This document shows, piece after piece, positions 1,655-38,728 of a stretch of DNA of 61,180 nucleotides. Within the stretch, counting starts at the first letter, position 1. Each line of letters opens with the position of its first letter. Under the pieces are notes generated by a model. The model ran no database searches, was not told the origin of the DNA, and saw nothing but the letters and a program-made list of their open reading frames with translations. The position numbers were made by a program, and so were the translations under genes. Location of the stretch: IMG/VR virus record IMGVR_UViG_3300023099_000001, positions 1 to 61,180 of that record; one strand, written 5' to 3'. Source of the DNA: a virus.

Positions 1655-1656
1655 GT

Positions 1657-2202: not shown

Positions 2203-2254
2203 CCAGCTACAGCAAACAAACCAGCAATAAATAGTAGCTTTTCTTCAAGTGTTT

Positions 2255-3293: not shown

Positions 3294-3519
3294 GAGCCTT
3301 CACAAGATTTTGAAAGAACGGATCGGACATATCCCACACTACAGGGTAGTGTACGTTTCCGCTAGGGTCTTTATGGCACTGGTAAAGTTCGTCATCAACA
3401 GACACAATAAACCACCGCGACTCGTCAACACTACCCTGCCTCTGCTCCCAGATGCTCCATGTCCGAGTTTCTGCGGCCACGGGCGGGTCATCGGCCCGAT
3501 GCTTAGCCATGAAAACCAT
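3280..3519 (-). CDS. hypothetical protein (79 aa)
   Basis: ORF track. Confidence 0.55.
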   Translation of the reverse strand: MVFMAKHRADDPPVAAETRTWSIWEQRQGSVDESRWFIVSVDDELYQCHKDPSGNVHYPVVWDMSDPFFQNLVKALENE

Positions 3520-3820
3520 CGCGCATAATAGGCGTAGCAGTAGGCATTACCTTACCGTTAGCAATTTCTTCGCGCAGCTTAGCTGAAGTCTCGCGGACAC
3601 GAATAGTCTGCTTATCCATCACCCGCACATAGGCAGCCGTAGCCAAATCAGAATGACTAACAGCATCGATAGATAAACCCTGAATAACTCTCATGAATTC
3701 GTCAACAGCCACACGAGCGCTAGTAGCTTCCATGATAGCGCGGGAATGCTTCAACGCTGTGCTCACGCCCAAACGAATCTCACCGTATTGCTTAGCGATT
3801 TTATTTTTTGACTTAAACAT
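3503..3820 (-). CDS. hypothetical protein (105 aa; start moved to ATG 3820)
   Basis: Internal ATG (MFKSKNK...) lies 1 nt after the stop of the upstream gene at 3822. The longer ORF would overlap that gene by 80 nt. Confidence 0.55.
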   Translation of the reverse strand: MFKSKNKIAKQYGEIRLGVSTALKHSRAIMEATSARVAVDEFMRVIQGLSIDAVSHSDLATAAYVRVMDKQTIRVRETSAKLREEIANGKVMPTATPIMRDGFHG

Positions 3821-3821
3821 T

Positions 3822-4109
3822 TTATTCACCCGTCCACTGCTCGTATGTGCCGGGGTAACCCAGCAACACAATCTCACCTGACGCATCCTGACCAACCCCA
3901 ACAATAATTGCGGGGATAACCTGCTTCTCGTTCTCAGGATTCATAATCTCAATTGAGATTACAGTGTCACCGGGAATCTGCGCAAGAATGTTTGACAAAG
4001 CAGAAACCGTAATCTGAGTGCTTGACGTAGTGGTGTCCTCGCTGCCCCTATAGTTTCCCAACTGAGGGGTATCTTCGTGCTTTTCTTGTCCGTTAGGAAA
4101 CATAGACAT
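3822..4109 (-). CDS. hypothetical protein (95 aa; start moved to ATG 4109)
   Basis: ATG (MSMFPNG...) lies directly after the upstream stop at 4111. Confidence 0.55.
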   Translation of the reverse strand: MSMFPNGQEKHEDTPQLGNYRGSEDTTTSSTQITVSALSNILAQIPGDTVISIEIMNPENEKQVIPAIIVGVGQDASGEIVLLGYPGTYEQWTGE

Positions 4110-4110
4110 T

Positions 4111-4410
4111 TTAGTAATCTTCTCTCTGTGGGTCGTTGCCGTCGTACTGCTCGTACTGGTAATAGTAATCCATGGTCTGTAAATTACCGTTTCTATCTCT
4201 GATAAAACCATTTATACCGTGGATAAGAAAACCCGGAAATTTTTTAACAAACTGTAGCACAGCATCTGCAATGTCGGTTGCCGGAAAATTGCTTAACGTC
4301 ATTGACGTATTATCTGTCGGGTTGCGCGCAGAAATACTCCACACTGTCGGCGCAGTTTCCGTAGCTGCCGTAGCTGCCGTAGCTGCCGTAGAAGTCTCAG
4401 ATGCTGTCAT
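4111..4410 (-). CDS. hypothetical protein with (TAA)n repeat N-terminus (99 aa)
   Basis: ORF track; contains a 9-bp x3 tandem repeat (4361-4390) encoding TAATAATAAT. Confidence 0.55.
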   Translation of the reverse strand: MTASETSTAATAATAATETAPTVWSISARNPTDNTSMTLSNFPATDIADAVLQFVKKFPGFLIHGINGFIRDRNGNLQTMDYYYQYEQYDGNDPQREDY

Positions 4411-4607
4411 GAATTAAACACTACACCCTTGTAGTAAGTTAACGCAACAATCAAATCACTAACTTCCCGCTCATTCAGGATAATAGTATGACTTTCGTAC
4501 TTAGCCAACCAAGTAGTTTTAAGTCTTACTCCCTTGGAGTAGCTTTCGGCTTCTCCCACCTCTAAACTGAAAACAATTCTTTCATTAGTGCGCTCAATTT
4601 CTATCAT
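4407..4607 (-). CDS. small protein, C-terminal D-L-x-x-A-L-x-Y-Y helix family (66 aa; start at ATG 4607)
   Basis: MIEIERTNERIVF...EREVSDLIVALTYYKGVVFNS. Confidence 0.6.
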   Translation of the reverse strand: MIEIERTNERIVFSLEVGEAESYSKGVRLKTTWLAKYESHTIILNEREVSDLIVALTYYKGVVFNS

Positions 4608-4887
4608 CGCCTGCTTCCTTCTCAAGCTCACCGCGCACAAACTGCACTTGATCCAAAATTGCCAAAGCAAGCTCTTCAGCCTGTGCTACACTCATACCGA
4701 AAATGCCGTTAGTTCGTATAACACCAGAAAGTTCTACAAGAATTGGTGTCAGTCTTCCATCACGCATAGCCTCAAAATTATCGCCTGTCGGCCTGACTAC
4801 TTTAGAGAAATAAACATCGACTGCGGTATCTTGTGCCCACACAGTGACGACACGCCGTGAGTAAGCTTCCTCCCATGACGTAATCAT
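4594..4887 (-). CDS. hypothetical small protein (97 aa), distant member of the same family
   Basis: ...SVAQAEELALAILDQVQF...; same size class and position in the tandem array. Confidence 0.55.
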   Translation of the reverse strand: MITSWEEAYSRRVVTVWAQDTAVDVYFSKVVRPTGDNFEAMRDGRLTPILVELSGVIRTNGIFGMSVAQAEELALAILDQVQFVRGELEKEAGDDRN

Positions 4888-5144
4888 GGCTTAATCCTAC
4901 CCTCAGTCACCGCGATATGGTACTCCAAAACGGTAATATAATCTTTGACCTCTTGAACAGTCAAACCAATACTTGTTTTTACCTGTGTAAAACCGGGTGA
5001 GCCGGAGAGAAAATTTGCTCCTACCGTAGCCAACACAACAACTTCATTTATGCTACGAGGGCGGTTAGATTCTACCGTCAGTTCTACACCGTGCAGCCAA
5101 CGGGACTTAAGTGGAACAGCACTTTTAACATAGTTATCTGCCAC
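4884..5144 (-). CDS. small protein, C-terminal helix family
   Basis: 86 aa ending ...VQEVKDYITVLEYHIAVTEGRIKP. Confidence 0.6.
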   Translation of the reverse strand: MADNYVKSAVPLKSRWLHGVELTVESNRPRSINEVVVLATVGANFLSGSPGFTQVKTSIGLTVQEVKDYITVLEYHIAVTEGRIKP

Positions 5145-5373
5145 TATTCAACACCGTCCGGTAATATTCGAGCGCTGTAATAAAATCGTCAAGCTGTTTC
5201 CCGCGAATCAAAATTACGTGTCTGTTATCTTCGTTATCATAGTGAAACGTAACAGCAACATCGTTACCAGCCATTTCTTCAACGTCTAGCTCTAGCTTGA
5301 TATCAGTATTGTAGTTTTCTTCGTCGTTGTAATCAGACCTTGGCAGTTTAGTTTCAAGAATTCGATAACTCAC
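5134..5373 (-). CDS. small protein, C-terminal D-L-x-x-A-L-x-Y-Y helix family
   Basis: 79 aa (GTG start) ending ...GKQLDDFITALEYYRTVLNSGR. Confidence 0.6.
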   Translation of the reverse strand: MSYRILETKLPRSDYNDEENYNTDIKLELDVEEMAGNDVAVTFHYDNEDNRHVILIRGKQLDDFITALEYYRTVLNSGR

Positions 5374-5377
5374 CGGC

Positions 5378-5554
5378 TCACTCTCCGTTACTTATAGCCT
5401 GAGTGCGTTGAGCAAGGCGAGTGCGAGCGCGCCGCTTACGCCGATCAGCGTGAACACCACTAGCGCCAGAACGACGAAGCTCACGCATAGCCGCAATATA
5501 TCCCTCATTAGCGACCTTGTGCGGTCTGAATTTCGGCGGCTTCTGCTTCTTCAT
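5378..5554 (-). CDS. small basic protein (58 aa), below the ORF-track cutoff
   Basis: Hand translation MKKQKPPKFRPHKVANEGYIAAMRELRRSGASGVHADRRKRRARTRLAQRTQAISNGE. Its stop lies 4 nt before the next gene's GTG. Confidence 0.4.
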   Translation of the reverse strand: MKKQKPPKFRPHKVANEGYIAAMRELRRSGASGVHADRRKRRARTRLAQRTQAISNGE

Positions 5555-5660
5555 GGTCCAAGTCTACAAGTTCTTCATGGTCCAAGTCTACAAGCAAATC
5601 AGGCTGGTGTACAGCATAGTAAGCGTAAATTTCTTCGGGTGTCGGATGATTCTTTGACAT
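5490..5660 (-). CDS. small acidic protein (56 aa) containing a duplicated LVDLDHEE unit
   Basis: Hand translation MSKNHPTPEEIYAYYAVHQPDLLVDLDHEELVDLDHEEAEAAEIQTAQGR; spans the 24-bp tandem duplication at 5547-5594. Confidence 0.35.
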
Positions 5661-5667
5661 GATTTAA

Positions 5668-5973
5668 TCAATCTTTCAGGGCTTCAATAACGTCGGCACA
5701 ATCTATCAGATACTGTGCCAATTTGCGTGCCTCAGGAGCACTAAGCAGAAAATTTCTAGTCATGGCGGTAAAGAAAATGTCACTACCTTGAGCCGATATT
5801 GACGGAAGTCTATCAACAGTAGACGCATTTATAATCACCATACCTACGGTTTCTTCTGACGTTCTATTGCCTTCGTTATCAAATCCTACTATCTGCTTAT
5901 ACCCGTTTAAGTCCTCAAATGCGTGCTCGAAAATTTCTAGCTCGTCTGGCGTGTAATCTTTTCTAGCCATCAA
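5668..5973 (-). CDS. hypothetical protein (101 aa), possibly a distant family member
   Basis: ORF track; ends ...APEARKLAQYLIDCADVIEALKD. Confidence 0.55.
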   Translation of the reverse strand: MMARKDYTPDELEIFEHAFEDLNGYKQIVGFDNEGNRTSEETVGMVIINASTVDRLPSISAQGSDIFFTAMTRNFLLSAPEARKLAQYLIDCADVIEALKD

Positions 5974-6197
5974 AACTCCCCTCTTCTGGCAGAACGCTCT
6001 TCATGAGTTTTAACACGCTTCTTGATTGCGCGCGCAATAAGCCTAGCACCATTACGAACCGATCCGCTAACGCTACGATCAAACTTCTTCTCGATCTTCC
6101 GAACGTGCTCATCACGCCATCCAGTAGCACCGTGATATCCGCCGATTGTCGCCTTCACACGACGAGTTATTTTCCTTTGTCCTGCGTTTGAATCCAT
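5970..6197 (-). CDS. small basic protein (75 aa)
   Basis: ORF track; 4-nt overlap with the downstream gene. Confidence 0.55.
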   Translation of the reverse strand: MDSNAGQRKITRRVKATIGGYHGATGWRDEHVRKIEKKFDRSVSGSVRNGARLIARAIKKRVKTHEERSARRGEF

Positions 6198-6397
6198 TAG
6201 TCCGAACCTCCCGAGTCACCGGAAGACACCGGTACACACCAATCTGCCGGAACAGAAACAGGGGACGGCCACTCAGCATCAACCTCTTTAATAATAATAC
6301 TCTGGCTCGTTGACTTGATTTTGACAATCTGGTAAACAGTACCGTCGCCGCCATCATATTTTGGGGCGGTAACTAAATCACCTACTGACAGTTTCAT
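6197..6397 (-). CDS. hypothetical protein (66 aa)
   Basis: ORF track; shares junction nucleotides with both neighbours. Confidence 0.55.
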   Translation of the reverse strand: MKLSVGDLVTAPKYDGGDGTVYQIVKIKSTSQSIIIKEVDAEWPSPVSVPADWCVPVSSGDSGGSD

Positions 6398-6789
6398 TAC
6401 GGACCTCTTCGAATTTCAGTAGCCCATTCGCGCGCATCACTGACGAAAGTATCTTGGTCCCAGATTACAGCAGACTTATTATCTGCTAAGGCATTCGCGT
6501 AGTCCTCTACAGCCTCGGCCTTGACCTCGCGCTCGTCGCGGATGATGCCTGCGGCAAGCAGTGTGTCAACATCCTCCTGACATGAGCCACAATACGGAGG
6601 CGCGCTTGCGCAGCTGCCGCAATACTGTTGGTTTGATATGAATTCCAGCAGTGCTTCACGGCTTACGGTCAGGCGTGACTCGCGGCCAGCCTCAAACCCT
6701 ATGCGCCGGTCCTCGACACGACCATAGTGGTCGTCAATTCCGTCCGGGAAGCGGGCAATCGCCTCGGGGCTATGCTGTGGCTCAGTCAT
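6397..6789 (-). CDS. hypothetical Cys-rich protein (130 aa)
   Basis: ORF track; contains CGSCASAPPYCGSCQ. Confidence 0.6.
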   Translation of the reverse strand: MTEPQHSPEAIARFPDGIDDHYGRVEDRRIGFEAGRESRLTVSREALLEFISNQQYCGSCASAPPYCGSCQEDVDTLLAAGIIRDEREVKAEAVEDYANALADNKSAVIWDQDTFVSDAREWATEIRRGP

Positions 6790-6974
6790 TTTGAATCCTT
6801 AGTGTCAACAACTCTTGCGGCGTTACCTATGCTATTCCAAATCTTCACTTTGTACTTAGCTGAAAATTTAAAGTGGTAACTGTCGCTATCAACAACCCAC
6901 CTACCCATATTGAAAAATTCAACCACATAACGTTTTTGTGGGGCTGGATAAGATTCATAAATAACTTTTGGCAT
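6786..6974 (-). CDS. hypothetical protein (62 aa)
   Basis: ORF track. Confidence 0.55.
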   Translation of the reverse strand: MPKVIYESYPAPQKRYVVEFFNMGRWVVDSDSYHFKFSAKYKVKIWNSIGNAARVVDTKDSK

Positions 6975-7289
6975 TTACTTGTCCTCAAGTTTATTCGGCG
7001 GGTAATCCCCCACCAACTGTGTTTTCACATATTCCAAATGTGAAACTTGCCCGTTATATTTACGGTACCGTGACAAACACAAATAAGCATAATCAGAAAT
7101 TGTTTCTGGTGTTGCTTTGTCGGCGTACATATTAGTTTGATACAGTGCCACGGTGTACTTAATCAACCCAAAAAACGTTTTACGGCGTTCCATCAGTCGA
7201 ACATGAATAAATGACACCCCCAACGGGTGTGATTCAGTAACCCGCCAAAATTGGTGAGCAGGTAATACAGGCAACGTGTTCTTAGACAT
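6975..7289 (-). CDS. hypothetical protein (104 aa)
   Basis: ORF track. Confidence 0.55.
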   Translation of the reverse strand: MSKNTLPVLPAHQFWRVTESHPLGVSFIHVRLMERRKTFFGLIKYTVALYQTNMYADKATPETISDYAYLCLSRYRKYNGQVSHLEYVKTQLVGDYPPNKLEDK

Positions 7290-7575
7290 GCGTTAGCTCT
7301 TTCTCTTTACGCTTGATTTCCTGATAGCGGAACGCCTTAGCAACATCAAGATACAAATTGCTGAGCGGCAAGTCAAGCGCTTGGCTTATATTCGCAATCA
7401 CAGTACTACTCGGCTCTTTAATGCCCCGCTCAATCTCGCTCAGAAAACTCAGGCTGATATGGGATTTAGCCGACAGGTCACGTAAGGTCAAGTCCTGCTG
7501 TGTGCGGTACTGCTTGAGCGTACTACCCAACGCATACGCGGTTGACAATTCGTATTCAAGTGCGCGGTTTGTCAT
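7282..7575 (-). CDS. XRE-family helix-turn-helix transcriptional regulator (97 aa; start at ATG 7575)
   Basis: LKQYRTQQDLTLRDLSAKSHISLSFLSEIERGIKEPS is a classic Cro/CI-type HTH. The ATG overlaps the upstream stop (TGATG). Confidence 0.8.
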   Translation of the reverse strand: MTNRALEYELSTAYALGSTLKQYRTQQDLTLRDLSAKSHISLSFLSEIERGIKEPSSTVIANISQALDLPLSNLYLDVAKAFRYQEIKRKEKELTHV

Positions 7576-7874
7576 CAGATTAGTACAACCTTCCAGCAAT
7601 CTTCTGAATTTCTTTTGCAATCTGCGCAAATCACTTCATCCCACTTGTCTAGGTAATCATTGTAACGCTGCTGGCACCAAAAGCGTGTAATATTATCGCA
7701 TCCTGTTGCTTTTGCTACTGCGTGAGTAGTGCAGTCGTGCTCTTGCCTAGAATTACAGACCAAATTATCATGCTGGCTGTGCAGAATCTTCACAAACTCT
7801 TCGATATCCTGCTCAGAAATCGGTGACGCGACTGTTGGCGCTGATTCAGTATTCATGAGATACCCCCATTCCAT
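7575..7874 (-). CDS. hypothetical Cys-rich protein (99 aa)
   Basis: ORF track. Confidence 0.55.
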   Translation of the reverse strand: MEWGYLMNTESAPTVASPISEQDIEEFVKILHSQHDNLVCNSRQEHDCTTHAVAKATGCDNITRFWCQQRYNDYLDKWDEVICADCKRNSEDCWKVVLI

Positions 7875-8335
7875 GCTGCAAGTTCAGCCAGCCACTGGTC
7901 CGATTCGCGCAGCATTTGAGACAGGGCACGAGATACGAAGTAGAACTCGCCCCGCATGTTGACGAAGTTTTTCAACTCGTAGAGCACCGCCTCGCGCGGG
8001 GTCTTGCCGAATATTGCTGGACTCTTGCCCTCGGCGGCGCGGTGCATGTTGAGCGAGAGCGTCATGATGTGGTCCTGCATGTGGAAGCTGAACGCGTCCA
8101 TCACTGCCCGATACGCGGCGCTTTCGCGCTTCATATCAGCCTCGATGTGAGGGATGGATTTCGCAGCCTCAAAGTGCGCGTCGATGAGGTTCCAGCGCCC
8201 CGGCACGAACGTCACATCCATGCCGTATAGCTCGTTAGTGAACGAGAGCATTTCTCGGTATTCTACTTTGATGCCGGGATACCAGCGCAGTGTTGAATGA
8301 ATCACGGCTGCATTAGATGTGGGTGGATAGCTCAT
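7853..8335 (-). CDS. hypothetical protein (160 aa)
   Basis: ORF track. Confidence 0.6.
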   Translation of the reverse strand: MSYPPTSNAAVIHSTLRWYPGIKVEYREMLSFTNELYGMDVTFVPGRWNLIDAHFEAAKSIPHIEADMKRESAAYRAVMDAFSFHMQDHIMTLSLNMHRAAEGKSPAIFGKTPREAVLYELKNFVNMRGEFYFVSRALSQMLRESDQWLAELAAWNGGIS

Positions 8336-8339
8336 AGCT

Positions 8340-8954
8340 TTACTCTAGCGTCTGCGGGGGCGCTTGTACAGCGTTTTTGTTAATATCTTCGATCAGATTA
8401 CGGTAAAACGAACGCTGCGCTTCTGACATATTCGGGTCAGAATACCAATCCTCCGGCATGCTCTCAGTGGTCATAACATTCCACTCGTTCAGTTTGTAAT
8501 GGTACTCATACTCAGCCTGTTCGCCATCCTCAAGCTTCGTAATCCACACCGAACGCTCTGCGCGGTCAAGACTGTACTCCCACCCCAACACCGTAGCTTC
8601 GTTTGACAATTCAGCGTCAATCTTCTCGATTGTTGCAATTTTCTTCTGCGCCAGTCCAGCCACCGGACGAATTCTTGTTGTCAGCCCGCGCTCTTTGCGC
8701 TTTTGCGGGTCAGTTTCAATGAGCGGCTTATCGTTGCGAATCAGGTAAACGAAATTTCTGGTATTACCGATAGCTTCCGCAACCTGACCCACGGTGTAGT
8801 GGTAGTCAGCTTGCACCTTAAAAATGGCGCGCTGCAACGCTTGACGTTGGGGCGCTAACTCGTCTTCAAGCTGTTGACGTTGACGAGCTTTAATAGCTTC
8901 TCTGGTTTCCCAGAACTCGTTGTACTTATCGCTCAAATCTTCTAAACTACTCAT
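8340..8954 (-). CDS. hypothetical protein (204 aa); first gene downstream of the AT-rich palindrome region
   Basis: ORF track; possible HTH around TVGQVAEAIGNTRNFVYLIRN. Confidence 0.6.
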   Translation of the reverse strand: MSSLEDLSDKYNEFWETREAIKARQRQQLEDELAPQRQALQRAIFKVQADYHYTVGQVAEAIGNTRNFVYLIRNDKPLIETDPQKRKERGLTTRIRPVAGLAQKKIATIEKIDAELSNEATVLGWEYSLDRAERSVWITKLEDGEQAEYEYHYKLNEWNVMTTESMPEDWYSDPNMSEAQRSFYRNLIEDINKNAVQAPPQTLE

Positions 8955-9378
8955 TTTTATCTCTTTCGTGTCATAAACTAATTGTTTTAGGACGTACCAA
9001 TTATTTTGTGCGTACTAAACAATATAATCCTTCTCCGCACCAGCATGCGGGAGTAGATTAATTAATCTAGTTTGTATAATTTTGTCAGTACGTAGTAGAT
9101 TAATTAGTTTAGTACACTTTTTTGGGTGTGTCAAGTCAAAATTGTGCGATTCCGGGTTGTTTTTTGCTGTTTTTGAGGTTCAAATTTGCGTTTTTCGCTT
9201 TTTCCTCTATGTGAATGTGTAAAAGAATAATATATATATATTATTCTTTTAGAGCGACACAAAGGGAGAAAACTTAAACTGACCGATCGGTCAGGAATTT
9301 TCTGGAAAAAGGCACAACAACACAACTAACACAAAAAAGACAACACTAGTTACTTTCAGAACCAACAACTCTGATTTG

Positions 9379-9588
9379 TCAAGCATCGTTGACTCCCAAC
9401 ATTTCGTAAACACCCTTAGCAAATTCATCTGCTGAAATAGTAATGCCATCTATTCTGACATTATGCACATTCCAGATATTAATAAGAACAACAGACTCGT
9501 CGTCCTGTTTTTCCAACATCAAAGTAATAGACTTAACTTTATGTTTGCTGATGATTTTCACACCAAAATCACGAATGTTATACAACAT
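9379..9588 (-). CDS. hypothetical small protein (69 aa; start at ATG 9588)
   Basis: MLYNIRDFGVKIISKH...; the longer ORF would overlap the upstream gene. Confidence 0.5.
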   Translation of the reverse strand: MLYNIRDFGVKIISKHKVKSITLMLEKQDDESVVLINIWNVHNVRIDGITISADEFAKGVYEMLGVNDA

Positions 9589-9838
9589 TTTTGAATGCCT
9601 TACTGTGATAGTAAACCTCGAAAGTGTTCCAGCAGATAGCTGACCACACATAACCAGACTTAGTTGGGGGAGAAACTAAATTTCTCAGATTAGCCTCAAG
9701 GCTTGCCTCAAGCAACGAATCAAATTTATGTGATTGCCCATTCTGAGAAAAAGAACTACTAACACCTAACGGTAACACAGCAGGAGTTTCGACAATACCA
9801 AAACGTAGCGGCCTGCCGTACTTATCAGTGTCAGGCAT
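9578..9838 (-). CDS. hypothetical protein (86 aa)
   Basis: ORF track. Confidence 0.5.
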   Translation of the reverse strand: MPDTDKYGRPLRFGIVETPAVLPLGVSSSFSQNGQSHKFDSLLEASLEANLRNLVSPPTKSGYVWSAICWNTFEVYYHSKAFKNVV

Positions 9839-10112
9839 TTTTCAAATCCTCAAGCGTGATATCAGTGACTAAACGGTCAACAGAGTGTACGAGCTCATAA
9901 GTACCATTAGTGCGAACAACAGCCACAAAACGATTGTGTGCCGTACCAGCAATCATTGTAACCGCTCCGGTAGCAGGCGGTGTATGCACATTCCACGACA
10001 GCTTAGGGTTAGCTGATTTAATAATGTCAACCTGAATTTGCTGACGGTTAGAAAACTGACCTGTACTGTTTCTGACTTTATGAAAATTACTGGTGTTATT
10101 AGGTTTAGCCAT
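9831..10112 (-). CDS. hypothetical protein (93 aa)
   Basis: ORF track. Confidence 0.55.
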   Translation of the reverse strand: MAKPNNTSNFHKVRNSTGQFSNRQQIQVDIIKSANPKLSWNVHTPPATGAVTMIAGTAHNRFVAVVRTNGTYELVHSVDRLVTDITLEDLKNA

Positions 10113-10115
10113 AAT

Positions 10116-10340
10116 TCAGGTACCCTGCCTTCCCACAAGCTGCTTTAAATATTCAGCATTAAATTCTTCAAGATCAACAATAATATTCACATAGCTATGG
10201 CCGTCTTCAAGCTCCACATACATCTGAGTAGCATTAAAAACCTTTATAGTCAACACATGAGTCACGTCAGTACCGCCGCCTGTGTGATCGAGTAGTTTAG
10301 AATCTTCGTTCAGAGGAACAAATTTTTCAGGCTTAGTCAT
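10116..10340 (-). CDS. hypothetical small protein (74 aa; start at ATG 10340)
   Basis: MTKPEKFVPLNEDS...; the ATG overlaps the upstream stop by 8 nt. Confidence 0.5.
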   Translation of the reverse strand: MTKPEKFVPLNEDSKLLDHTGGGTDVTHVLTIKVFNATQMYVELEDGHSYVNIIVDLEEFNAEYLKQLVGRQGT

Positions 10341-10572
10341 AACTACGTGACCCCACCCCTGAGCCGTTAACCCAACCAAGAGTGCGGATAAGCTCAAGAC
10401 TCTCAAGCTCTTTATCAGGAATTGGCAAATCCATGTCAACGTCGAAACGGCTGCGTTTAGGCCGAGCTATCAAACTCTTGTGCATATCATTCACACGCTG
10501 CCTAGCTGCCACCCTAGCCGCTGTAGGAGCATTTCTGGGCGTAGAGTACTTAGAAGTGGGAGCCTTAGCCAC
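10333..10572 (-). CDS. hypothetical basic protein (79 aa)
   Basis: ORF track. Confidence 0.5.
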   Translation of the reverse strand: MAKAPTSKYSTPRNAPTAARVAARQRVNDMHKSLIARPKRSRFDVDMDLPIPDKELESLELIRTLGWVNGSGVGSRSYD

Positions 10573-10756
10573 GATTCGTAACCTCTACAATTTCATCCCA
10601 ATCGCTGCGAGAAAGCAGAACAATGTACGGATGAGAATTACTACGTTTTACAGAAACCTGCACAAGCTCGTCCTGAGCTACAACAGTAACAGAATTGTGC
10701 GGCTGCACGTTGTCTGTCTTTGTAACTCTTGTGAAGGTTGCCACAGGATTTCTCAT
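10565..10756 (-). CDS. hypothetical small protein (63 aa)
   Basis: ORF track; first gene after the 626-nt noncoding region. Confidence 0.5.
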   Translation of the reverse strand: MRNPVATFTRVTKTDNVQPHNSVTVVAQDELVQVSVKRSNSHPYIVLLSRSDWDEIVEVTNRG

Positions 10757-11382
10757 TTCTTGATTAGGTAATTACAAAAACTTGCCCGTAGGATCATACA
10801 TGGGGAGCTTTAGGGACTTTTAGCTCTCTGCCTCCACGTTCCATTCCAGTGAGTCAATTTCATATCTAGAATTTAGTTGTTACCTGACTGCCCTCATTCA
10901 CTACGCCATAGCTACGTGACTTATTGGGAATTTAAGATTGGCTAAATGCCCTCTGCGAGTTTTCTAGGGTTTCAAGTTTCATTTAGCCAATCAGCACGAC
11001 TGACACTTACTCTAGGCAATGTTCGGGCATTCCTGTTTCACTGCCAGCCGCGCAGACTGTCTAACTAATATATTTTCTATGTCGCTACACCAGTCCGGTC
11101 GTTTCTGGAATTACAAGCAATTCACCGGAGTTTCTAAAATCACATATATTCAACCCTATAGGCGGGTAACCTGTCGCTTTTACATGATAGCTCCTGATTA
11201 GGTATTTTTCATTTCTGTGCTACAAGAGAAACACTACGGGGAGTCAAGGTGTCTTGTCTAGTGTTTCTTTATAACAGATTGGTAACGGAAGATAACAGCC
11301 TGCAAACCAGCCTGAGAACTTGATTTCGAAAAATCAACTCTAGGCGCTTTACGTGGGACAGGTACAAAGCTGGGGAGTGTGA
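10757..11382 (-). other. 626-nt noncoding, hairpin-dense region between two leftward gene blocks (candidate structured RNA or regulatory region)
   Basis: No credible ORF on either strand. Perfect 13-bp (10936-10948/10980-10992) and 10-bp (11227-11236/11259-11268) inverted repeats, plus several shorter ones. Confidence 0.5.
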
Positions 11383-11613
11383 TCATTTCGAAATCACATC
11401 CGTGCCCAGCCCGTTACCCTGCACGTCCGCATCCCAAAAGCAATTATCGCTATCTTCAGTGGGGCACGGAGTTTCGGCGGGTATAGAAATAGTGGGCAAT
11501 TGCTGGGGAACAAACTGCATTTCCTGAATCTTGTTACCCACAATTACGATGAGTGCAACTGCAACCAACACAATCATGCAGTCCATAGCTGTTTTCAAAA
11601 ACTTGGGAATCAT
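11383..11613 (-). CDS. small membrane protein (76 aa, one TM helix)
   Basis: MIPKFLKTAMDCMIVLVAVALIVIVGNKI... is a hydrophobic N-terminus. ATGA overlap with the upstream ORF. Confidence 0.6.
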   Translation of the reverse strand: MIPKFLKTAMDCMIVLVAVALIVIVGNKIQEMQFVPQQLPTISIPAETPCPTEDSDNCFWDADVQGNGLGTDVISK

Positions 11614-11735
11614 GCTGGGTTTCCTACTCTCTTAGTGTTGTGTGAAATCTTTTCGAAGCTGGGTAAGTTGTCCATGTCCACGTCAAGGGCGGCAAGGCAC
11701 GACAGGGCACGCTGTAGCTTTCCTGAAATTCTCAT
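11610..11735 (-). CDS. small ORF (41 aa)
   Basis: Hand translation MRISGKLQRALSCLAALDVDMDNLPSFEKISHNTKRVGNPA; ATGA-coupled to 11613. Confidence 0.4.
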   Translation of the reverse strand: MRISGKLQRALSCLAALDVDMDNLPSFEKISHNTKRVGNPA

Positions 11736-11736
11736 T

Positions 11737-11880
11737 TCAGTAATCCCCTAAAAAGTAATCCCCTAAAATAGGAGCTAGGACCAACATAACCGCCGTGAGA
11801 ACACTATCCACAGTGGGATTATCCGCTTCCATAGCCTTATCAATGGCTTCGCCAAGGTCGTATTTAAGCTCTTCCAGCAT
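11737..11880 (-). CDS. small ORF (47 aa) downstream of hammerhead C
   Basis: Hand translation MLEELKYDLGEAIDKAMEADNPTVDSVLTAVMLVLAPILGDYFLGDY; the ATG lies 20 nt after the ribozyme motif. Confidence 0.45.
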   Translation of the reverse strand: MLEELKYDLGEAIDKAMEADNPTVDSVLTAVMLVLAPILGDYFLGDY

Positions 11881-11899
11881 TTTGATAACTCACTCTCTA

Positions 11900-11963
11900 A
11901 GTCTCATCAGTGTGCCTATCTGACACAGACCTAGCCTAATTGAATTTAGGCTAGGTTTCGACT
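11900..11963 (-). ncRNA. hammerhead ribozyme motif C (type II permutation)
   Basis: Minus-strand RNA: A GUC GAAA CCUAGCCUAA-auucaa-UUAGGCUAGG UC UGUGUC-agaua-GGCACA CUGAUGA GAC U. All invariant core nucleotides and a GUC cleavage triplet are present. Confidence 0.75.
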
Positions 11964-11976
11964 AGTTGGATAGAGA

Positions 11977-12816
11977 TTAGATGCTGTACGCTTCCCCACA
12001 GTTATCGCACGTCATCGTGGACTTCTCGTACATGTCACGAGGAATCCGGTAAATCGTGTCACAAGGGCACGAGACAGTGACCGTAGCGCTACCGTAAGCC
12101 TTACGCGGTTTCGGCGTGAACGGAATGTTCAAGTCAATTCCTGTAGTACCGCCGTAAGGGTTAGTGCTGGAAATGCGCCGGTAAATCGTGATCGCTGACA
12201 TAAGATTCTCGATTTTGTCGGCATACAGGGCGCGTGCGCTATCAGTGATACCCGGCGTAACGTGACCGATGTTTTGGTTCACGTTCGTGTTGGGGTCACG
12301 CTCCACAACACAACCGAAAGATGCTGCGAGGTTCGCAAAACGCTTGTTGTGGTAACGCCCTGAACGGGACGTGTCCTGAATGCCTTTAGCGTGCGCGTAA
12401 GCATGCGCAGCTTCATGCAACAGCGTGGAAACAGTTTTGATAACCTGTCCACCGTTTGTGTTCCACTCGCCCACCATAGACAGCGTGGAAAGCATCAACT
12501 CGTGGTGCGCAGCACCTTCGTACCGGTTCGGCGCGAAATGCCCATGAGCCCGTGTGTCGGCCTGCAACACAATGTTGACAGGCGGGGTACCGGGGTGTGT
12601 GTGCTGAATTTCACGCCACAACTCATTGATAGCGTTCAGAATGGGCAGAGTCGGCGTGTCATGGCGCAGAAACACTGCCAGCGCCTTACCGGGCAGCGTG
12701 TCGTGGTCCCGGTCGGCAGGGTAGCTCTTCTCAATGTTGCTAGCCCGCGTCAGGCTAACCACCCCGTGATCGACGGCGGCAACCAACGGGGCGTAAGTGA
12801 CTTTACGTGTTGACAT
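11977..12816 (-). CDS. SprT-like zinc metalloprotease with C-terminal zinc ribbon (279 aa; start at ATG 12816)
   Basis: LLHEAAHAYAHAKGIQDTSRSGRYHNKRFANLA contains an HExxH motif. C-terminal CPCD...CDNCG. The listed upstream start at 12849 lies inside the ribozyme motif. Confidence 0.7.
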   Translation of the reverse strand: MSTRKVTYAPLVAAVDHGVVSLTRASNIEKSYPADRDHDTLPGKALAVFLRHDTPTLPILNAINELWREIQHTHPGTPPVNIVLQADTRAHGHFAPNRYEGAAHHELMLSTLSMVGEWNTNGGQVIKTVSTLLHEAAHAYAHAKGIQDTSRSGRYHNKRFANLAASFGCVVERDPNTNVNQNIGHVTPGITDSARALYADKIENLMSAITIYRRISSTNPYGGTTGIDLNIPFTPKPRKAYGSATVTVSCPCDTIYRIPRDMYEKSTMTCDNCGEAYSI

Positions 12817-12832
12817 TCTATTCTCTCTTTCA

Positions 12833-12887
12833 AGACTCATCAGGTGCACTATCTGTGCACGACACGCTGTGGGAGCGTGTTTCGTCT
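12833..12887 (-). ncRNA. hammerhead ribozyme motif A (type II permutation)
   Basis: Minus-strand RNA: A GAC GAAA CACGCU-cccac-AGCGUG UC GUGCAC-agaua-GUGCAC CUGAUGA GUC U. Confidence 0.75.
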
Positions 12888-12894
12888 AGGGGGG

Positions 12895-13098
12895 TTACTC
12901 CCAGTCTGCTAGTGCTCCTGTTACCTCGAATTGTTCGAACGCTGCGCACAATGCGTCGCTACGGTCCAACCGAGGCCAGTTGCCTACTCGTGATTCGAAT
13001 ACCGAACCGTCGGTGTCAGCAATCGTTAGCACCGTATAACTGGGACGGTCCCCGAATGCCGGACCTTGCTTACCTGTAACAACTGTTATGCGTTCCAT
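12895..13098 (-). CDS. hypothetical protein (67 aa); first ORF of the ribozyme-punctuated operon
   Basis: ORF track; the ATG lies 21 nt after hammerhead B. Confidence 0.55.
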   Translation of the reverse strand: MERITVVTGKQGPAFGDRPSYTVLTIADTDGSVFESRVGNWPRLDRSDALCAAFEQFEVTGALADWE

Positions 13099-13119
13099 TG
13101 CTCTGCCTTTCGTGTAGTG

Positions 13120-13169
13120 GACTCATCAGCACGGGGGTTATCCGTGGACCCGTATACGCGGGTTTCGTC
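13120..13169 (-). ncRNA. hammerhead ribozyme motif B (type II permutation)
   Basis: Minus-strand RNA: GAC GAAA CCCG-cguaua-CGGG UC CACGG-auaaccc-CCGUG CUGAUGA GUC. Confidence 0.7.
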
Positions 13170-14164
13170 GGGTGGCTAGTACTTCGCGGCCCTAGCTAGG
13201 CGTTCCCTGAGACCCTGCCACCGTTTCGACTCCTACTATCCATGCGGCCCGGTGGGGCTCATTGATATCAGTATAGCCGCATATAGGCAGAATTGACCTG
13301 CAAATATCAACGGATTTATAACATTGCAGACCGTGCAAGATTGTGAGTACATAGCCCCCTCCACTAGTGGATATGCGCCACCCTGTCAATACCCCCGTAT
13401 ATACGCGCGCGGGCGAGGAAAACTCAGTCTTTCGAGCAGGGGGGTGTATGTACTGGTGTATGAGTGAGTCAATGGAACAGTACAGAGACCAACACATTGA
13501 TATATGAGTGTCAATCAATAGCTAGGTGCGCTGACATATGAGAGTCAATGAGTCGTTGACATATACATGTAGCTAGAACATATGTACGAGACAGAACAGT
13601 CTGTCGCACTATTAGCACTCGCAGAGCAAGAGTGCCAAAAGGGGGGTTTAGTGGGGTAAAGAGAACCCCGGAATAGAGCGGCTGAAAGGGGCTGATTCGA
13701 TTCTACGGGGCGAACGGGGATGAGTTAGGGGTAGCGGATGGGTAAGGGGGGTCAAGGGCTTAGACGGGCGCACAGGGCCGCACGCTATGAACTAGCTGTA
13801 TGAACACTGATAGGTGTGAGTGTAGAACACATGTACTAAACAGGGTGAGGATGTGTCAAGTTAAGAGTATGTACTGGTGTATGTACTAGCGTGACATATA
13901 AATGTATACATGAAAGGGATTAGAGTTGAATGAACGCTGATAGATAGCTGTGAGCGGGCTATGAGAAGAGCAAGAGAAACAAATGAGAATAAATCATGTT
14001 CAATCGATGAAAGAAGATAATGAGAGAATGTCACGGCTGGGAGAGCGTGGTTGGGGGTGGTGTATGTATTTTTGTATTAAAAATTTCTAGTGTAGTTTCT
14101 CTTTTCCAAAAAATAATCGGAGAAAAAATTGCTATAGGACCCGTTCTAGTTGTAGACTGTCTAC
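13170..14164. promoter_or_regulatory. about 1-kb noncoding divergent control region (repeats, G-tract cluster); candidate promoters, ori or pac
   Basis: Lies between leftward and rightward gene blocks. Only an implausible Cys/His-rich ORF is present. Direct repeats and 11 G-runs. Confidence 0.5.
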
Positions 14165-14476
14165 ATGAAAGATAAAACGCTTGAAGAGGTAGTATTAGAT
14201 TCTGTACAATCTACGTTGAGTACAGCAACACCTGAACAAATTACTGATTTAATCCGGGCACCATACGAGGATTTGAAGGGCAATAAAATGGACGAGTTTG
14301 ATTACATGCAGGACGATGCGCTAATGAAATTTACAAAACAGTTTGAGCCAGAGCTTAGCGACCATTACACCGGTAATATCGCGGATTACACTTTCTTTAT
14401 TCAGGAAGAGTTTCTGCCCCGTTTCGAGCGCGCTGTGTGGGAGCTAACGCTGCAATCCAGACCTAGCCGCAGGTAG
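14165..14476 (+). CDS. hypothetical protein (103 aa)
   Basis: ORF track; first rightward gene. TTGCTA-18 nt-TAGACT lies 6 nt upstream of the ATG (possible leaderless start). Confidence 0.6.
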   Translation: MKDKTLEEVVLDSVQSTLSTATPEQITDLIRAPYEDLKGNKMDEFDYMQDDALMKFTKQFEPELSDHYTGNIADYTFFIQEEFLPRFERAVWELTLQSRPSRR

Positions 14477-14492
14477 TGCTAAAATAGGTTGT

Positions 14493-14870
14493 ATGGCGAA
14501 TATGGTGTTGGTTGACTATAAGACTTTAGAGAACCCCCAAAAACGGGAGGTCGTTAAAGCCTTCCTTATCGAGCACTTAATTAGCCATCCCGATACCCTG
14601 ATTACTGTGCTGAATGCTGAATGGGACGCTCAACCTGTTATGACTAAAACTAGTCTGAAAGGTTGGGCGTTTCCTTTTGACGGGTTGGCGGTTAACCCTT
14701 TGACGTTGGAGGTACCTCCGATTACGTTTAAAACAATGTTTGCTGCGAGTGTGTCTGAAAAAGCTGAGCACAAGGTTGTGCTGGTTATTGATGACGAAAT
14801 GGAAGCGCTTACCATGTGGAAAAATTTTGGTGTAGTATTTACGTTAAGTCCTGAAGTTAAAGCGGCATAG
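14493..14870 (+). CDS. hypothetical protein (125 aa)
   Basis: ORF track. Confidence 0.6.
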   Translation: MANMVLVDYKTLENPQKREVVKAFLIEHLISHPDTLITVLNAEWDAQPVMTKTSLKGWAFPFDGLAVNPLTLEVPPITFKTMFAASVSEKAEHKVVLVIDDEMEALTMWKNFGVVFTLSPEVKAA

Positions 14871-14888
14871 AAGAGAGTAAGTGTTATT

Positions 14889-15104
14889 ATGGGTGTTTCT
14901 GCGTCTAAGTATGTGAAAGACATTATGGAAGTTCTGACTATGCAGGACGGGCAATTCAATGAAGAAATTAGTGCTTATGTTACTGCGTATGCTTGCGGTG
15001 AAGATCAGGTTGCTGTAGAGTTAGAATATGTAGACCCGGATGATGACGAGGATATGGAAATCGTTCAGGTTAAAAAATTCACTATTGTTATTACAGAAGA
15101 CTAG
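14889..15104 (+). CDS. hypothetical acidic protein (71 aa)
   Basis: ORF track. Confidence 0.55.
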   Translation: MGVSASKYVKDIMEVLTMQDGQFNEEISAYVTAYACGEDQVAVELEYVDPDDDEDMEIVQVKKFTIVITED

Positions 15105-15116
15105 AGGATTAAAATT

Positions 15117-15485
15117 ATGGCAGCACGTAACGAACGCAATAGTTTTTCAAGCAGCGAGACTATGACACGCACTTTTGTTGTTACACAGAAGCATGAGTAT
15201 GAGTATCAGGTACGTAAGAAAAATACCGATATGCTTACCAGCGCGCCGGTAGATTACGACACGTTGCCGGAAGATCACCCTGACTATGAGTGGATAGAGT
15301 CTAACTGGACAGACACAGTTACGGCTTATGTTATCGAGCCGCGTGATGATAGCGACGTAGTATGCGTTAGAGTTGGTGAAAGCGATAATTCTTTAACACT
15401 TTACGACGAAGGCGATATTGACGCTTACATTCAGTTGCTGTCTGATATCAAAGCCGCTAAGGTATTTGATAAGAAGTCCGAATAA
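15117..15485 (+). CDS. hypothetical protein (122 aa)
   Basis: ORF track; followed by a terminator. Confidence 0.6.
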   Translation: MAARNERNSFSSSETMTRTFVVTQKHEYEYQVRKKNTDMLTSAPVDYDTLPEDHPDYEWIESNWTDTVTAYVIEPRDDSDVVCVRVGESDNSLTLYDEGDIDAYIQLLSDIKAAKVFDKKSE

Positions 15486-15509
15486 ATCCGAAGTATTCGG
15501 AATAGAAGA

Positions 15510-15540
15510 CCCCGCTGAGAAATTGGCGGGGTTTTCGTTT
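15510..15540 (+). terminator. rho-independent terminator
   Basis: CCCCGC-ugagaaauug-GCGGGG followed by TTTTCGTTT. Confidence 0.7.
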
Positions 15541-15580
15541 GTCTGCACGGATTTGACATTTACATGATAAAATGTAAGTT

Positions 15581-16108
15581 ATGGCTAATCTTAGTGTGTT
15601 GCAGGGTGAAATACTTGATATGGTGGCTGAGGGCAAAAGCCCCCGCCAGATCGAAGCTCGCCTTGGCGTACCCGCTGCACAGGTTCACAGAATAGCTAAT
15701 GAGCTACTTGATAAAGAACTTGACCTTGACACTGATTCTAAGCGAAAAATTCAGGTATACCGGCTTGAAAAAATCATTGAGTCCCTTTACCAGCGTGTAA
15801 TGAAGCACGCTGACCGCGATGACGTAAAGAACCTTGTGGAAGTAATGGACCGCGTTAATGACCTGCTGGCGCTGCATAAAGAGCGTGATGCAGCAGAGTT
15901 GCTGCGTGTTACACAGTATCAGTCTAGTTTGTACATTGGTTCTCTAAAGACACTTGTTAACGCTTTTAAAGCTATTGCACCTAACGCTATGTCGAATGAT
16001 GAGTGGGATGAGTGGACGGCGGCACAGTTAATGATTGCGCAGTCAACTCTTGAAGCTAACGCTGGGCAGCTTGAACTCAGTGGTGAAACAAAGGAAATCG
16101 AGAACTAA
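15581..16108 (+). CDS. terminase small subunit (putative; HTH N-terminus)
   Basis: Position immediately upstream of the large terminase. N-terminal HTH-like GKSPRQIEARLGVPAAQVHRIANELL. Confidence 0.6.
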   Translation: MANLSVLQGEILDMVAEGKSPRQIEARLGVPAAQVHRIANELLDKELDLDTDSKRKIQVYRLEKIIESLYQRVMKHADRDDVKNLVEVMDRVNDLLALHKERDAAELLRVTQYQSSLYIGSLKTLVNAFKAIAPNAMSNDEWDEWTAAQLMIAQSTLEANAGQLELSGETKEIEN

Positions 16109-16350
16109 TGGCATATCCACAGACACAAACGCTACTAAAATCGCTGGGTTTAAATCCTAGTGTAATCAGCGCAGATGGTTTAACTCCTACAACTTACCAT
16201 GAGTTTATTGTTAGTAATGGTAAGCTAAAGTTTGACAACAATACCGGAAATGCGCAGTATGTTGTCCGCGAGTGGCCCACCGGACAGGCTGAAAGGATTT
16301 GGGCAAGCCTAATTGCTGAAGCGCCTTCCCTAAGCGGGGAGTATAAATAA
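16108..16350 (+). CDS. hypothetical protein (80 aa)
   Basis: ORF track; ATG/stop coupled on both sides. Confidence 0.55.
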   Translation: MAYPQTQTLLKSLGLNPSVISADGLTPTTYHEFIVSNGKLKFDNNTGNAQYVVREWPTGQAERIWASLIAEAPSLSGEYK

Positions 16351-18017
16351 TGGCTAACATTGAACAAGTAGTACAGAATGTATTTGATGATGCTATTGCT
16401 GATTTACGTAAGTCAAGTAAAAACGCTAAATACAAAACAGATATCGCTTTATGGGCTAAAGAAGTTCTAGGCATCCACCTGTGGAGTAAACAACGCGAAG
16501 TTGCTGATGCTGTGCTTAATCATAAGCGTGTAGCTGTAAAGTCTTGCCACAACGCTGGTAAAAGCAAACTTGCCGCCATTATTGCATGTTGGTGGATTGC
16601 AACACACCCTATCGGTGAAGCTATTGTCGTTACAACTGCGCCAACATATCAGCAGGTTCACGGTATCCTGTGGCGAGAAATTGGTAAACACCACGAAATC
16701 TCAGCCGAAAACGGTCAACCATTACCGGGTAACATTACCGCGAGTGATAAATGGAACATTGTTCACAACGGAACACTGTTTCAGGCTGGGTGGGGACGTA
16801 AGCCTGCGGACACAAATATTCACGGTTTTCAGGGTGTCCACGAACGTTATGTGCTGGTGATTGTAGATGAGGCGTGTGGTATTAATGAATCTCTTTGGAC
16901 AGCGATTGAAGCGATCACCACAACAGGTGATGCAAGAATTTTGGCTATCGGTAACCCAGATGACCCCAACACCCAGTTCGGGAAAATCTTTAATGACGCA
17001 AAAACCTCTAGTCAATGGAACCTCAATACAATCAGTGCATTTGACACACCCAACCTTGCCAGACATTTTCTTAACGATCCAAGCAGTCCCCACTATAAGT
17101 ACGCAGTGCTGGATAAAGATTTTCCCGACGAACTACGACCTTTAATGCTTCAAGAGGATACAGTCGAATCTTGGCGTATCCAATGGTCAGAGAACGATCC
17201 ACGCTGGAAAGCTAAAATTCTGGGCGAGTTCCCTGACCAATCTGAGAACTCTCTTTTCTCACAGGCAGTCGTCAACAAAGCTGTTGAGACAGAAGTCCGG
17301 CCAGATCACGACTCACGTCCGCTACTGGGTGTCGATGTGGCGCGTTTTGGAAATGACCTTAGCGCGATATATAGTGTTGAAACTGGTTCGGTTTGGGAGT
17401 CGCTAACTGATGAAGATAACGAAATTTCGTGGGTTCAAACGCAGCGTAGAGGCAAACGTGTCAGACTCGTTAAATCGTGGGCGAAAGCAGACGGCGTGGA
17501 AGCTGCAAACCTTATCCACCAAACTGCTCTCGAAACCGGCGCATATGAAGTCCGAATTGACATTGGTGGACTTGGTGCGCCAATCAAAGACCAAGTTGCT
17601 GTCCTTGCACAAACCACCTATTCAGTAGTTGGTATGAACGGTAACGGGCCGACACCGGACTCGTATCATTGGCGTAATGCTAGAGCGTGGTGGCATGACT
17701 CGCTAAGAGAGCAGATGCAAAGTGGTACAATTGATATTGATTATTCAGACGATAAGCTAAAAAATGAGCTTCTAGGTATTCGGTACCACTTTAAAAACAC
17801 GCACAGGGCTTTACAGGTTGAATCTAAAGATGACATGGCTTCACGTAACGTTAAGTCGCCTGACCACTCTGACGCGGTTGTTTACGCTACAGCACCTATT
17901 GAAGATTTACTTTCAAGTCCTTTAGGTATGTACAACGTTGGGCAGAAGTTAAGCATTGATCCGCGAGTATTTATGGACACTGAAGGTAACCGCTTCAGCC
18001 TACTCGGACCCTACTAA
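16350..18017 (+). CDS. terL: terminase large subunit
   Basis: 555 aa. Walker A-like VAVKSCHNAGKSKLAA, Walker B VLVIVDEACGI, nuclease-like C-terminal half, position before the portal. Confidence 0.85.
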   Translation: MANIEQVVQNVFDDAIADLRKSSKNAKYKTDIALWAKEVLGIHLWSKQREVADAVLNHKRVAVKSCHNAGKSKLAAIIACWWIATHPIGEAIVVTTAPTYQQVHGILWREIGKHHEISAENGQPLPGNITASDKWNIVHNGTLFQAGWGRKPADTNIHGFQGVHERYVLVIVDEACGINESLWTAIEAITTTGDARILAIGNPDDPNTQFGKIFNDAKTSSQWNLNTISAFDTPNLARHFLNDPSSPHYKYAVLDKDFPDELRPLMLQEDTVESWRIQWSENDPRWKAKILGEFPDQSENSLFSQAVVNKAVETEVRPDHDSRPLLGVDVARFGNDLSAIYSVETGSVWESLTDEDNEISWVQTQRRGKRVRLVKSWAKADGVEAANLIHQTALETGAYEVRIDIGGLGAPIKDQVAVLAQTTYSVVGMNGNGPTPDSYHWRNARAWWHDSLREQMQSGTIDIDYSDDKLKNELLGIRYHFKNTHRALQVESKDDMASRNVKSPDHSDAVVYATAPIEDLLSSPLGMYNVGQKLSIDPRVFMDTEGNRFSLLGPY

Positions 18018-38456: not shown

Positions 38457-38479
38457 CCAGCTTGAATAACTAAATACTT

Positions 38480-38552: not shown

Positions 38553-38557
38553 CGCAA

Positions 38558-38629: not shown

Positions 38630-38654
38630 CCACTTGACAACTTAATATCAACAA

Positions 38655-38726: not shown

Positions 38727-38728
38727 CT

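Follow-up and report, generated by a model that had tools for sequence, protein, structure and literature searches.

Clusters of type II hammerhead ribozymes have been described around prophage genes, with a stem II of as little as 2 bp and with cleavage both in vitro and in vivo (PMC3088659). For such clusters, the splitting of polycistronic phage transcripts into single-gene mRNAs was proposed in 2011 (PMC3088659), and effects of the cleavage on stability or translation are listed as unproven (PMC6765202). In D. vulgaris, moreover, in vivo activity has been shown for three type II hammerheads located close to phage-like genes (PMC8782182). The element considered here, a type II hammerhead termed motif B (13120..13169, minus strand), which is recognised by its minus-strand sequence, by a descriptor match and by the scores of the covariance models RF02276 and R1, is a further example of the clustered phage type II hammerheads described in 2011 (PMC3088659).

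The window, i.e. the whole stretch of 61,180 nucleotides of the IMG/VR record IMGVR_UViG_3300023099_000001 that was analysed, encodes a terminase, a portal protein, a head protease, a tape measure protein, a tail protein, a DNA polymerase, a primase and a helicase, and this set of terminase, portal, tail and replication genes identifies it as a tailed-phage genome. It corresponds to nearly the whole of a 61,194-bp contig in an ENA metagenome assembly. It also carries 25 tRNA genes within 3.3 kb (38386-41640, plus strand) and a lone tRNA gene (50111-50184, minus strand), a large complement for a 61-kb phage. A stretch of about 1 kb devoid of called genes (13170..14164) separates the rightward structural operon from a divergent leftward operon of small genes, and motif B is situated at its 3' edge on the minus strand. 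From there, the minus strand presents, in this order, the leader, motif B, a 67-aa gene, motif A, a 279-aa SprT-like gene, motif C, a 47-aa gene and further small genes.

The 67-aa ORF (12895..13098, minus strand) is the first of the leftward operon, a called gene with homologues at 58% and 54% identity, and a purine-rich AAAGG/GAG stretch lies between motif B and its start. Motif A (12833..12887, minus strand), a type II hammerhead of the sub-type with an AGAUA loop that is supported by RF02276 (22.8 bits), R1 (31.5 bits) and the descriptor, begins 7 nt past the stop of the 67-aa ORF and ends 16 nt ahead of the next ATG; its stem II, AGAC/GUCU, comprises 4 bp and its C17 is located at 12861. 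The following 279-aa gene (11977..12816, minus strand) is classified as SprT-like by a weak Pfam match, by phrog_6361 and by its homologues. Its product features the putative metalloprotease motif HEAAH and a C-terminal CxxC...CxxC arrangement, and related proteins occur in the Actinoplanes phage phiAsp2 as well as in Streptomyces and Micromonospora genomes. Motif C (11900..11963, minus strand), again type II with an AGAUA loop and supported by the descriptor and by R1 (29.4 bits), has an 11-bp stem III, an AGUC/GACU stem II and C17 at 11928; it begins 13 nt past the SprT-like stop and ends 19 nt ahead of the next ATG. Downstream of motif C lies the 47-aa ORF (11737..11880, minus strand; from the ORF list and a called gene).

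Read as minus-strand RNA from 13169 to 13120, motif B consists of GAC, GAAA, a CCCG/CGGG helix capped by CGUAUA, UC, a CACGG/CCGUG helix capped by AUAACCC, CUGAUGA and GUC. In standard hammerhead numbering, stem II is formed by the 11.x strand GAC (13169-13167) and the 10.x strand GUC (13122-13120), G12-A14 (GAA) occupies 13166-13164, stem III with A15.1-U16.1 included extends over 13163-13148, C17 lies at 13147, stem I comprises 13146-13130 and the segment CUGAUGA (C3-A9) 13129-13123, all on the minus strand. Hence, the core of C3, U4, G5, A6, N7, G8 and A9, of G12, A13 and A14 and of H17 is complete and in the right order around a three-way junction, with both closing pairs present, G10.1-C11.1 of stem II as G13122-C13167 and A15.1-U16.1 of stem III as A13163-U13148. 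The topology is that of type II, stems I and III being capped by loops while stem II is open, and the three-way junction is the minimum free energy (MFE) fold of a 65-nt segment. Stem II comprises 3 bp and is followed by a C.C position. One nucleotide 5' of stem II, a 6-bp hairpin GGUGGC...GCCACC (13171..13222, minus strand; 13222-13217/13176-13171) is found, the 3' strand of which takes the place of an A-G flank conserved in the sub-family of motif B. An earlier note, drawn up from the letters alone, had given the same sequence, the same 3-bp stem II and the same hairpin (13171-13176/13217-13222), all of which match the minus strand; its identification of a hammerhead is borne out by the complete core, the descriptor match at 13169..13120 and the type II topology. 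Likewise, its placing of the predicted cleavage after C17 at 13147/13146 agrees with the numbered core, and the 21 nt that it counted between motif B and the first ORF are recovered with the ATG at 13098.

With respect to the frequency of such motifs, the pattern GAAA-N8-30-TC-N8-30-CTGATGA occurs four times in the window against 0.67 expected occurrences. A full descriptor, which additionally asks for an A-U pair closing stem III, for H17, for a hairpin in stem I and for no fewer than 2-3 bp in stem II, retains three matches in the window, 13169..13120 (motif B), 12887..12833 (motif A) and 11963..11900 (motif C), and all three are located on the minus strand, between called genes and within 1.27 kb. 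In 300 dinucleotide-preserving shuffles the same descriptor yields no match, even at relaxed stem lengths. Two looser matches, at 28964-29056 (plus strand) and 49329-49370 (minus strand), were taken as chance, as their loops are huge or their stem II has just 2 bp, and R1 lends them no support. The proposition that motif B itself is a chance match, or a repeat at the DNA level devoid of any role as RNA, could appeal to its score below the Rfam gathering threshold and to its ordinary energy when folded in isolation (z = -0.21 for 65 nt, compared with -2.91 for motif A and -4.22 for motif C). Since the folding energy is unremarkable, the support for motif B derives from the motif and from comparative data rather than from energy. 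Opposed to a chance origin are the absence of shuffled matches set against three clustered, co-oriented and intergenic ones, the strong covariation of the family and a distance of about 30 bits between motif B and the background of R1; a DNA repeat is contradicted by the three copies themselves, which have the core alone in common, none of the stems being the same. The latter had already been observed in the earlier note, which described a common core and different stems that still pair, and the sequence comparison of the three copies agrees. The chance or repeat reading is thus effectively refuted.

The covariance models place motif B in the type II family both by sequence and by structure, at rather different scores. 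At gathering thresholds, Rfam reports 26 tRNAs in the whole window and no hammerhead; the gathering score of RF02276 (Hammerhead_II) is 37 bits, which is an operational database criterion and not a biochemical one. With permissive filters, RF02276 aligns to motif B from end to end (model positions 1-66) at 18.6 bits, below gathering, and reports motif A, while motif C is left unreported, probably due to its 11-bp stem III. Scores of this order are common among similar elements: in ten short metagenome contigs with B-type ribozymes, RF02276 gave nine matches of 22.3-32.5 bits, some contigs having none and no match attaining 37 bits, and none of the compact ribozymes in the scanned IMG/VR loci was found at gathering, whereas pseudoknot-type hammerheads in one locus (L026) and AGAUA-type copies in another (L063) do reach it. 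Accordingly, the shortfall in RF02276 is common to the whole compact class and not peculiar to motif B. Since none of those scanned reached the Rfam gathering threshold, annotation pipelines for phages probably overlook many compact type II hammerheads.

A second covariance model, R1, was built from a gap-free seed of 17 B-like IMG/VR sequences and contains no sequence of the window. Searched over both strands of the whole window with filters off, it assigns 41.1 bits (E 4.6e-9) to motif B, a score that is partly circular because the seed was fetched with a pattern made from the conserved letters of motif B; motifs A and C follow at the scores given above, and the next match has 11.3 bits. A covariance score at background level, which the earlier note had named as evidence against a hammerhead, was therefore not obtained, the best background match being the one at 11.3 bits. 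Elsewhere, R1 produces 102 matches in 76 other loci, many of which had not been selected by text patterns.

In total, 280 distinct related ribozymes were gathered from public viral and metagenome contigs. Pattern searches of IMG/VR alone revealed 41 loci with the letters of B-like ribozymes and 25 loci with the AGAUA loop, several contigs bearing two or three copies, and the loci with B-like ribozymes are not relatives of the phage analysed here. The B-like pattern was also found in a Streptomyces chromosome and in metagenome-assembled genomes of Umezawaea, Nanopelagicales, Bdellovibrionota and Alphaproteobacteria. In an alignment of 78 distinct sequences, which was fitted to the R1 model, 99.5% of the cells are paired and both sides have changed in 12 of the 15 pairs; the covariation score amounts to 0.72, compared with at most 0.096 in slid controls, and is reached by none of 500 shuffles. 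A cleaner test is provided by a metagenome scan in which only the outer 5 bp of stem I of motif B and the core were fixed, and which returned more than 119 loci among the matches listed. Here, the unconstrained pairs of stem II are formed in 114, 115 and 112 of 117 distinct sequences among the matches listed; at the second pair, the 114 paired sequences contrast with 46.9 in the shuffled control and are distributed over AU (48), UA (37), CG (15) and GC (14), again among the matches listed. The helices of the type II hammerhead are hence backed by compensatory changes among homologues.

Two compact type II sub-types recur among these sequences (loci L015-L207). The first combines a 6-bp stem I, an AGAUA loop and a 4-bp AG(U/C)C stem II; in the second, a stem I of 6 bp carries a U-N-A-N-G loop, and the GGNC stem II of 4 bp has A.A at its flanks. 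Both occur commonly in viral as well as metagenome contigs, with scores mostly below Rfam gathering. A much denser arrangement than the trio of motifs B, A and C is seen in the IMG/VR record IMGVR_UViG_2974780946_000001 (L026), where 11 type II hammerheads above Rfam gathering are found at 1137-10061 (minus strand) within an 11.9-kb stretch.

The placement of these ribozymes relative to genes is conserved. Among the first 81 loci, 79 distinct hammerheads were evaluated: the distance from the 3' end to the next start codon has a median of 18 nt (interquartile range 15-26), the 5' end follows the previous stop codon at a median of 3 nt, and a Shine-Dalgarno-like motif is present within 30 nt in 62 of the 79. 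Stem II measures 4 bp in 59 and at most 3 bp in 15 of this sample. Motif B, with 21 nt to the start codon and a 3-bp stem II, fits this pattern. The very precise placement, approximately 3 nt past a stop and 18 nt ahead of a start, thus pertains to 79 of the 280 ribozymes gathered.

The compact phage sub-type to which motif B is closest can be written as aGGNC-GAAA-[stem III]-UC-[6 bp + 5-nt U-N-A-N-G loop]-CUGAUGA-GN'CCa. Motif B shares with it the outer 5 bp of stem I (common to more than 117 members), GAC/GUC in stem II, the CCC/GGG start of stem III, the GUCCA 3' flank and an equal distance to the downstream start codon. In the 117-member set, an apparent 7-nt loop is almost always a sixth pair plus a 5-nt U-N-A-N-G loop, and stem II has exactly 4 bp with A/A flanks. 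Motif B departs from this scheme at four positions. Its sixth stem I pair, A13141.C13135, is broken, a pair formed in 116 of 117 relatives among the matches listed; its fourth stem II pair, C13170.C13119, is broken as well (formed in 112 of 117 among the matches listed); the base 5' of that pair is C, where A is present in 106 of 117 among the matches listed; and its loop, UAACC, ends in C instead of G, a base shared by 1 of 80 relatives among the matches listed. All four departures are situated at the distal ends of stems I and II, where the two stems face each other. In hammerheads, fast cleavage at physiological Mg2+ depends on a contact between stem I and stem II (PMC3088659), and a pseudoknot between loop and tail is not obligatory, approximately 40% of hammerheads overall using one (PMC3088659); within type II, such a feature occurs in most members, though not in all. 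By inspection, no pseudoknot of at least 4 bp was found between loop I (AUAACCC) of motif B and the 25 nt of its 3' tail; a possible 4-bp match of loop I to AGGGU in the loop of the upstream hairpin is unsupported. As its stems I and II lack distal pairs, motif B would probably cleave more slowly than motifs A and C, to judge from these pairings. The earlier note had considered motif B the weakest of the three owing to its 3-bp stem II, an assessment that holds and extends further, in that the sixth pair of stem I and two further conserved positions of the sub-family are also absent from motif B.

These departures raise the possibility that motif B is a hammerhead in the evolutionary sense which has lost efficient catalysis, a decaying copy that would amount at most to a pair of hairpins in a 5'-UTR. 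Such a loss would agree with the change of four near-invariant sub-family positions, all distal in stems I and II, with the missing pseudoknot, with the lowest Rfam score among the detectable copies, with the lack of conservation of position B in orthologous loci and with the takeover of the 5' flank of stem II by an unrelated hairpin. On the other hand, motif B has kept every strictly conserved nucleotide of the core along with all three helices, and natural type II hammerheads with a stem II of 2-3 bp exist, both in the sample of 79 described above and in the literature (PMC3088659). Moreover, a close homologue in the locus L014 (NCBI GCA_040384245.1, JAWVHA010014897.1) retains the 3-bp GAC/GUC stem II together with the CC 5' flank. 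It resembles motif B also in the 5-bp stem III, in a 7-nt loop I ending in ACC and in the inner stem I pairs ACGG/CCGU, can be aligned with it through both flanks, and receives the same R1 score of 41.1 bits. It differs from motif B in that it occupies the place of motif A, one gene farther downstream, and in a stem I that is two pairs longer, with a 4-bp UUGA/UCAA pairing between loop and tail being possible. Between this one close homologue and motif B, compensatory swaps are found in stem III (G-C to C-G) and stem I (C-G to U-A), in addition to the two extra pairs, and no pair is broken. These changes, as far as the two sequences can tell, argue for maintenance, contrary to simple decay, and a decayed motif B is regarded as unlikely. 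Motif B is a genuine, if slightly eroded, copy of a type II hammerhead, and its predicted cleavage may be slow.

A broader conjecture would treat the compact type II hammerheads, with their 6-bp stem I, U-N-A-N-G loop, 4-bp A.A-flanked stem II and lack of a pseudoknot, as a distinct sub-class with its own contact between loop and helix ends, which phages would use systematically as insulators, each cistron thereby receiving a 5'-hydroxyl end some 18 nt ahead of its start; motif B and its homologue in L014 would then constitute a second solution and not decayed copies. This is put forward as a speculative proposal, and its truth is doubtful.

Regarding the conservation of the locus, homologues of the SprT-like protein were detected at 50-61% identity on contigs that keep synteny. 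A megablast search of 9000-17000 against the phage collection gave no match, a search of IMG/VR with the SprT-like protein yielded no relative, and tblastn for relatives retrieved only the Actinoplanes phage phiAsp2, at 26% identity. In three of the syntenic relatives (L005, L008 and L014), a type II hammerhead is located directly upstream of the SprT-like gene, i.e. at the position of motif A. The one in L005 scores 39.8 bits with RF02276, above gathering, and the one in L008 has CUGAAGA (N7 = A) with a 6-bp stem I and an AGAUA loop, as in motifs A and C. The position of motif A is devoid of a hammerhead in four further relatives (L002, L006, L009 and L013). Upstream of the two distant orthologues that the 67-aa gene has in L081 and L082, no ribozyme is found, from which it follows that position B is not conserved. 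Owing to the same two orthologues, the idea of a cassette composed of a hammerhead plus a gene is unsupported. The pattern of presence and absence among the relatives indicates that ribozymes are gained and lost at individual intergenic sites, in agreement with the inconstancy of the flanked genes in phage hammerhead clusters (PMC3088659).

Two further observations concern the same relatives. Six of them that are without motif C (L002, L005, L008, L009, L013 and L014) have strong CTAG-rich hairpins just downstream of the SprT-like gene, and stem III of motif C (CCUAGCCUAA/UUAGGCUAGG, 11959..11929) is similar in character; judging from this resemblance, it appears as if an intergenic hairpin had been there first and motif C had formed around it. 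A 175-aa protein (15581-16108, plus strand) shows about 80% identity among the syntenic relatives, its gene being by far better conserved than any other in the vicinity of the locus; the sole match of this protein is a weak one to phrog_645, annotated as RNase E (E 1.2e-7).

The gene-free stretch 13170..14164, the minus strand of which is presumed to be the 5' leader that motif B would cut off, has a counterpart in the syntenic relatives, where a gene-free gap of approximately 0.3-1 kb is found at the same place. It contains the 17-nt repeat GGTGTATGTACTGGTGT four times (13443, 13864, 13876 and 14059) as well as further short direct repeats, e.g. TGA(T/C)ATATGAG(T/A)GTCAAT twice, and may harbour promoters, operators or an origin. 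A scan of 11000-14600 for sigma-70 promoters and terminators gave counts at chance level and no promoter upstream of motif B on the minus strand. A 108-aa ORF with a TTG start (13192..13518) was taken as non-coding, as it has no family match and is not a called gene. Immediately upstream of motif B, the octamer GUCGAAAC (13229..13222, minus strand) followed by the hairpin 13222..13171 resembles the 5' half of an AGAUA-type hammerhead. Its interpretation as half of a larger or nested hammerhead was rejected, as position 16.1 would be A and stem II unpaired; to judge by the resemblance, the octamer and hairpin may be a remnant of a hammerhead.

The leader also bears on whether motif B might be conditional. 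In the MFE fold of a 176-nt context, 13237..13227 pairs with 13126..13117 in place of stem II, so that this leader segment would sequester the 3' end of the core along with a stem II strand and thereby gate cleavage. The hammerhead fold of motif B costs 3.3 to 7.6 kcal/mol over the MFE in longer contexts, approximately 7.5 kcal/mol in the 176-nt context that forms the competing helix and 3.3 kcal/mol with 110 nt of upstream sequence. The latter penalty is within the range of the family, in which the median cost is 2.4 kcal/mol (280 distinct sequences) and 4.7 kcal/mol for members with a 3-bp stem II. Moreover, the 176-nt context folds no better than its shuffles (z = 0.32), there is no comparative support for the competing helix, and the homologue in L014 has no leader. 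A regulatory switch made of the leader helix is not robust, its penalty being dependent on context, and gating of motif B in this manner is judged highly improbable.

The reading favoured here, which is held to be likely, is that motif B is a type II hammerhead that is transcribed within the leftward small-gene operon of a tailed phage and cleaves after C17 to remove the leader, and that together with motifs A and C it cuts the transcript into single-gene pieces. Its transcription and cleavage, as well as any effects on mRNA stability or translation, are what we infer from motif, family and placement. Motif B would fold co-transcriptionally and cleave after C17 between 13147 and 13146, whereby a long 5' leader would be removed, and the remaining mRNA, headed by a 5'-hydroxyl and the hairpin of stem I, would start about 48 nt in front of the 67-aa gene's start codon. 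At the next two intergenic junctions, motifs A and C would cut likewise, thus converting a polycistronic transcript into single-gene RNAs. At the 5' end of each of these pieces, a stem I hairpin would lie just in front of the ribosome-binding site, and the 3' end would be formed by a stem III hairpin carrying a 2',3'-cyclic phosphate, so that each cistron would gain a defined 5' UTR independent of its context. Counting against this reading are the score of motif B below gathering, its position as an outlier of its sub-family, the missing pseudoknot, the ordinary folding energy, the cost of the hammerhead fold in longer contexts, the partial circularity of its R1 score, the unconserved position and the lack of a detected promoter.

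The class has been known since 2011, so that the surprise is small. Nevertheless, the locus assembles three hammerheads of two sub-types within 1.3 kb of an early-type phage operon, and motif B, which naturally lacks distal helix pairs, offers a convenient natural test of their share in cleavage within a native transcript. In addition, the set of 280 ribozymes provides far more examples than the curated family suggests for asking what the phage gains.

An engineered counterpart of the phage elements is RiboJ, a ribozyme placed ahead of a ribosome-binding site that raises both transcript and protein levels (PMC6206723). Like them it is a self-cleaving ribozyme upstream of the gene that it insulates, and unlike them it is synthetic; by analogy, its effect suggests that such cleavage can benefit expression and might do so for the phage elements too. 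From the RF02276 consensus, motif B and the compact class differ by the lack of a pseudoknot between loop I and the 3' tail and, in the case of motif B, by a score below the gathering threshold; motif B differs further in that two helix-end pairs conserved by its own sub-family are missing. With the clusters of Perreault et al. 2011 (PMC3088659; RF02276), motifs B, A and C share the core CUGANGA / GAAA / UH, a short open stem II and capped stems I and III. They likewise occur in multiple copies that flank single genes or short blocks of a phage transcript, with flanked genes that vary, and they are co-oriented, intergenic and part of one phage transcription unit, as in the clusters described there.
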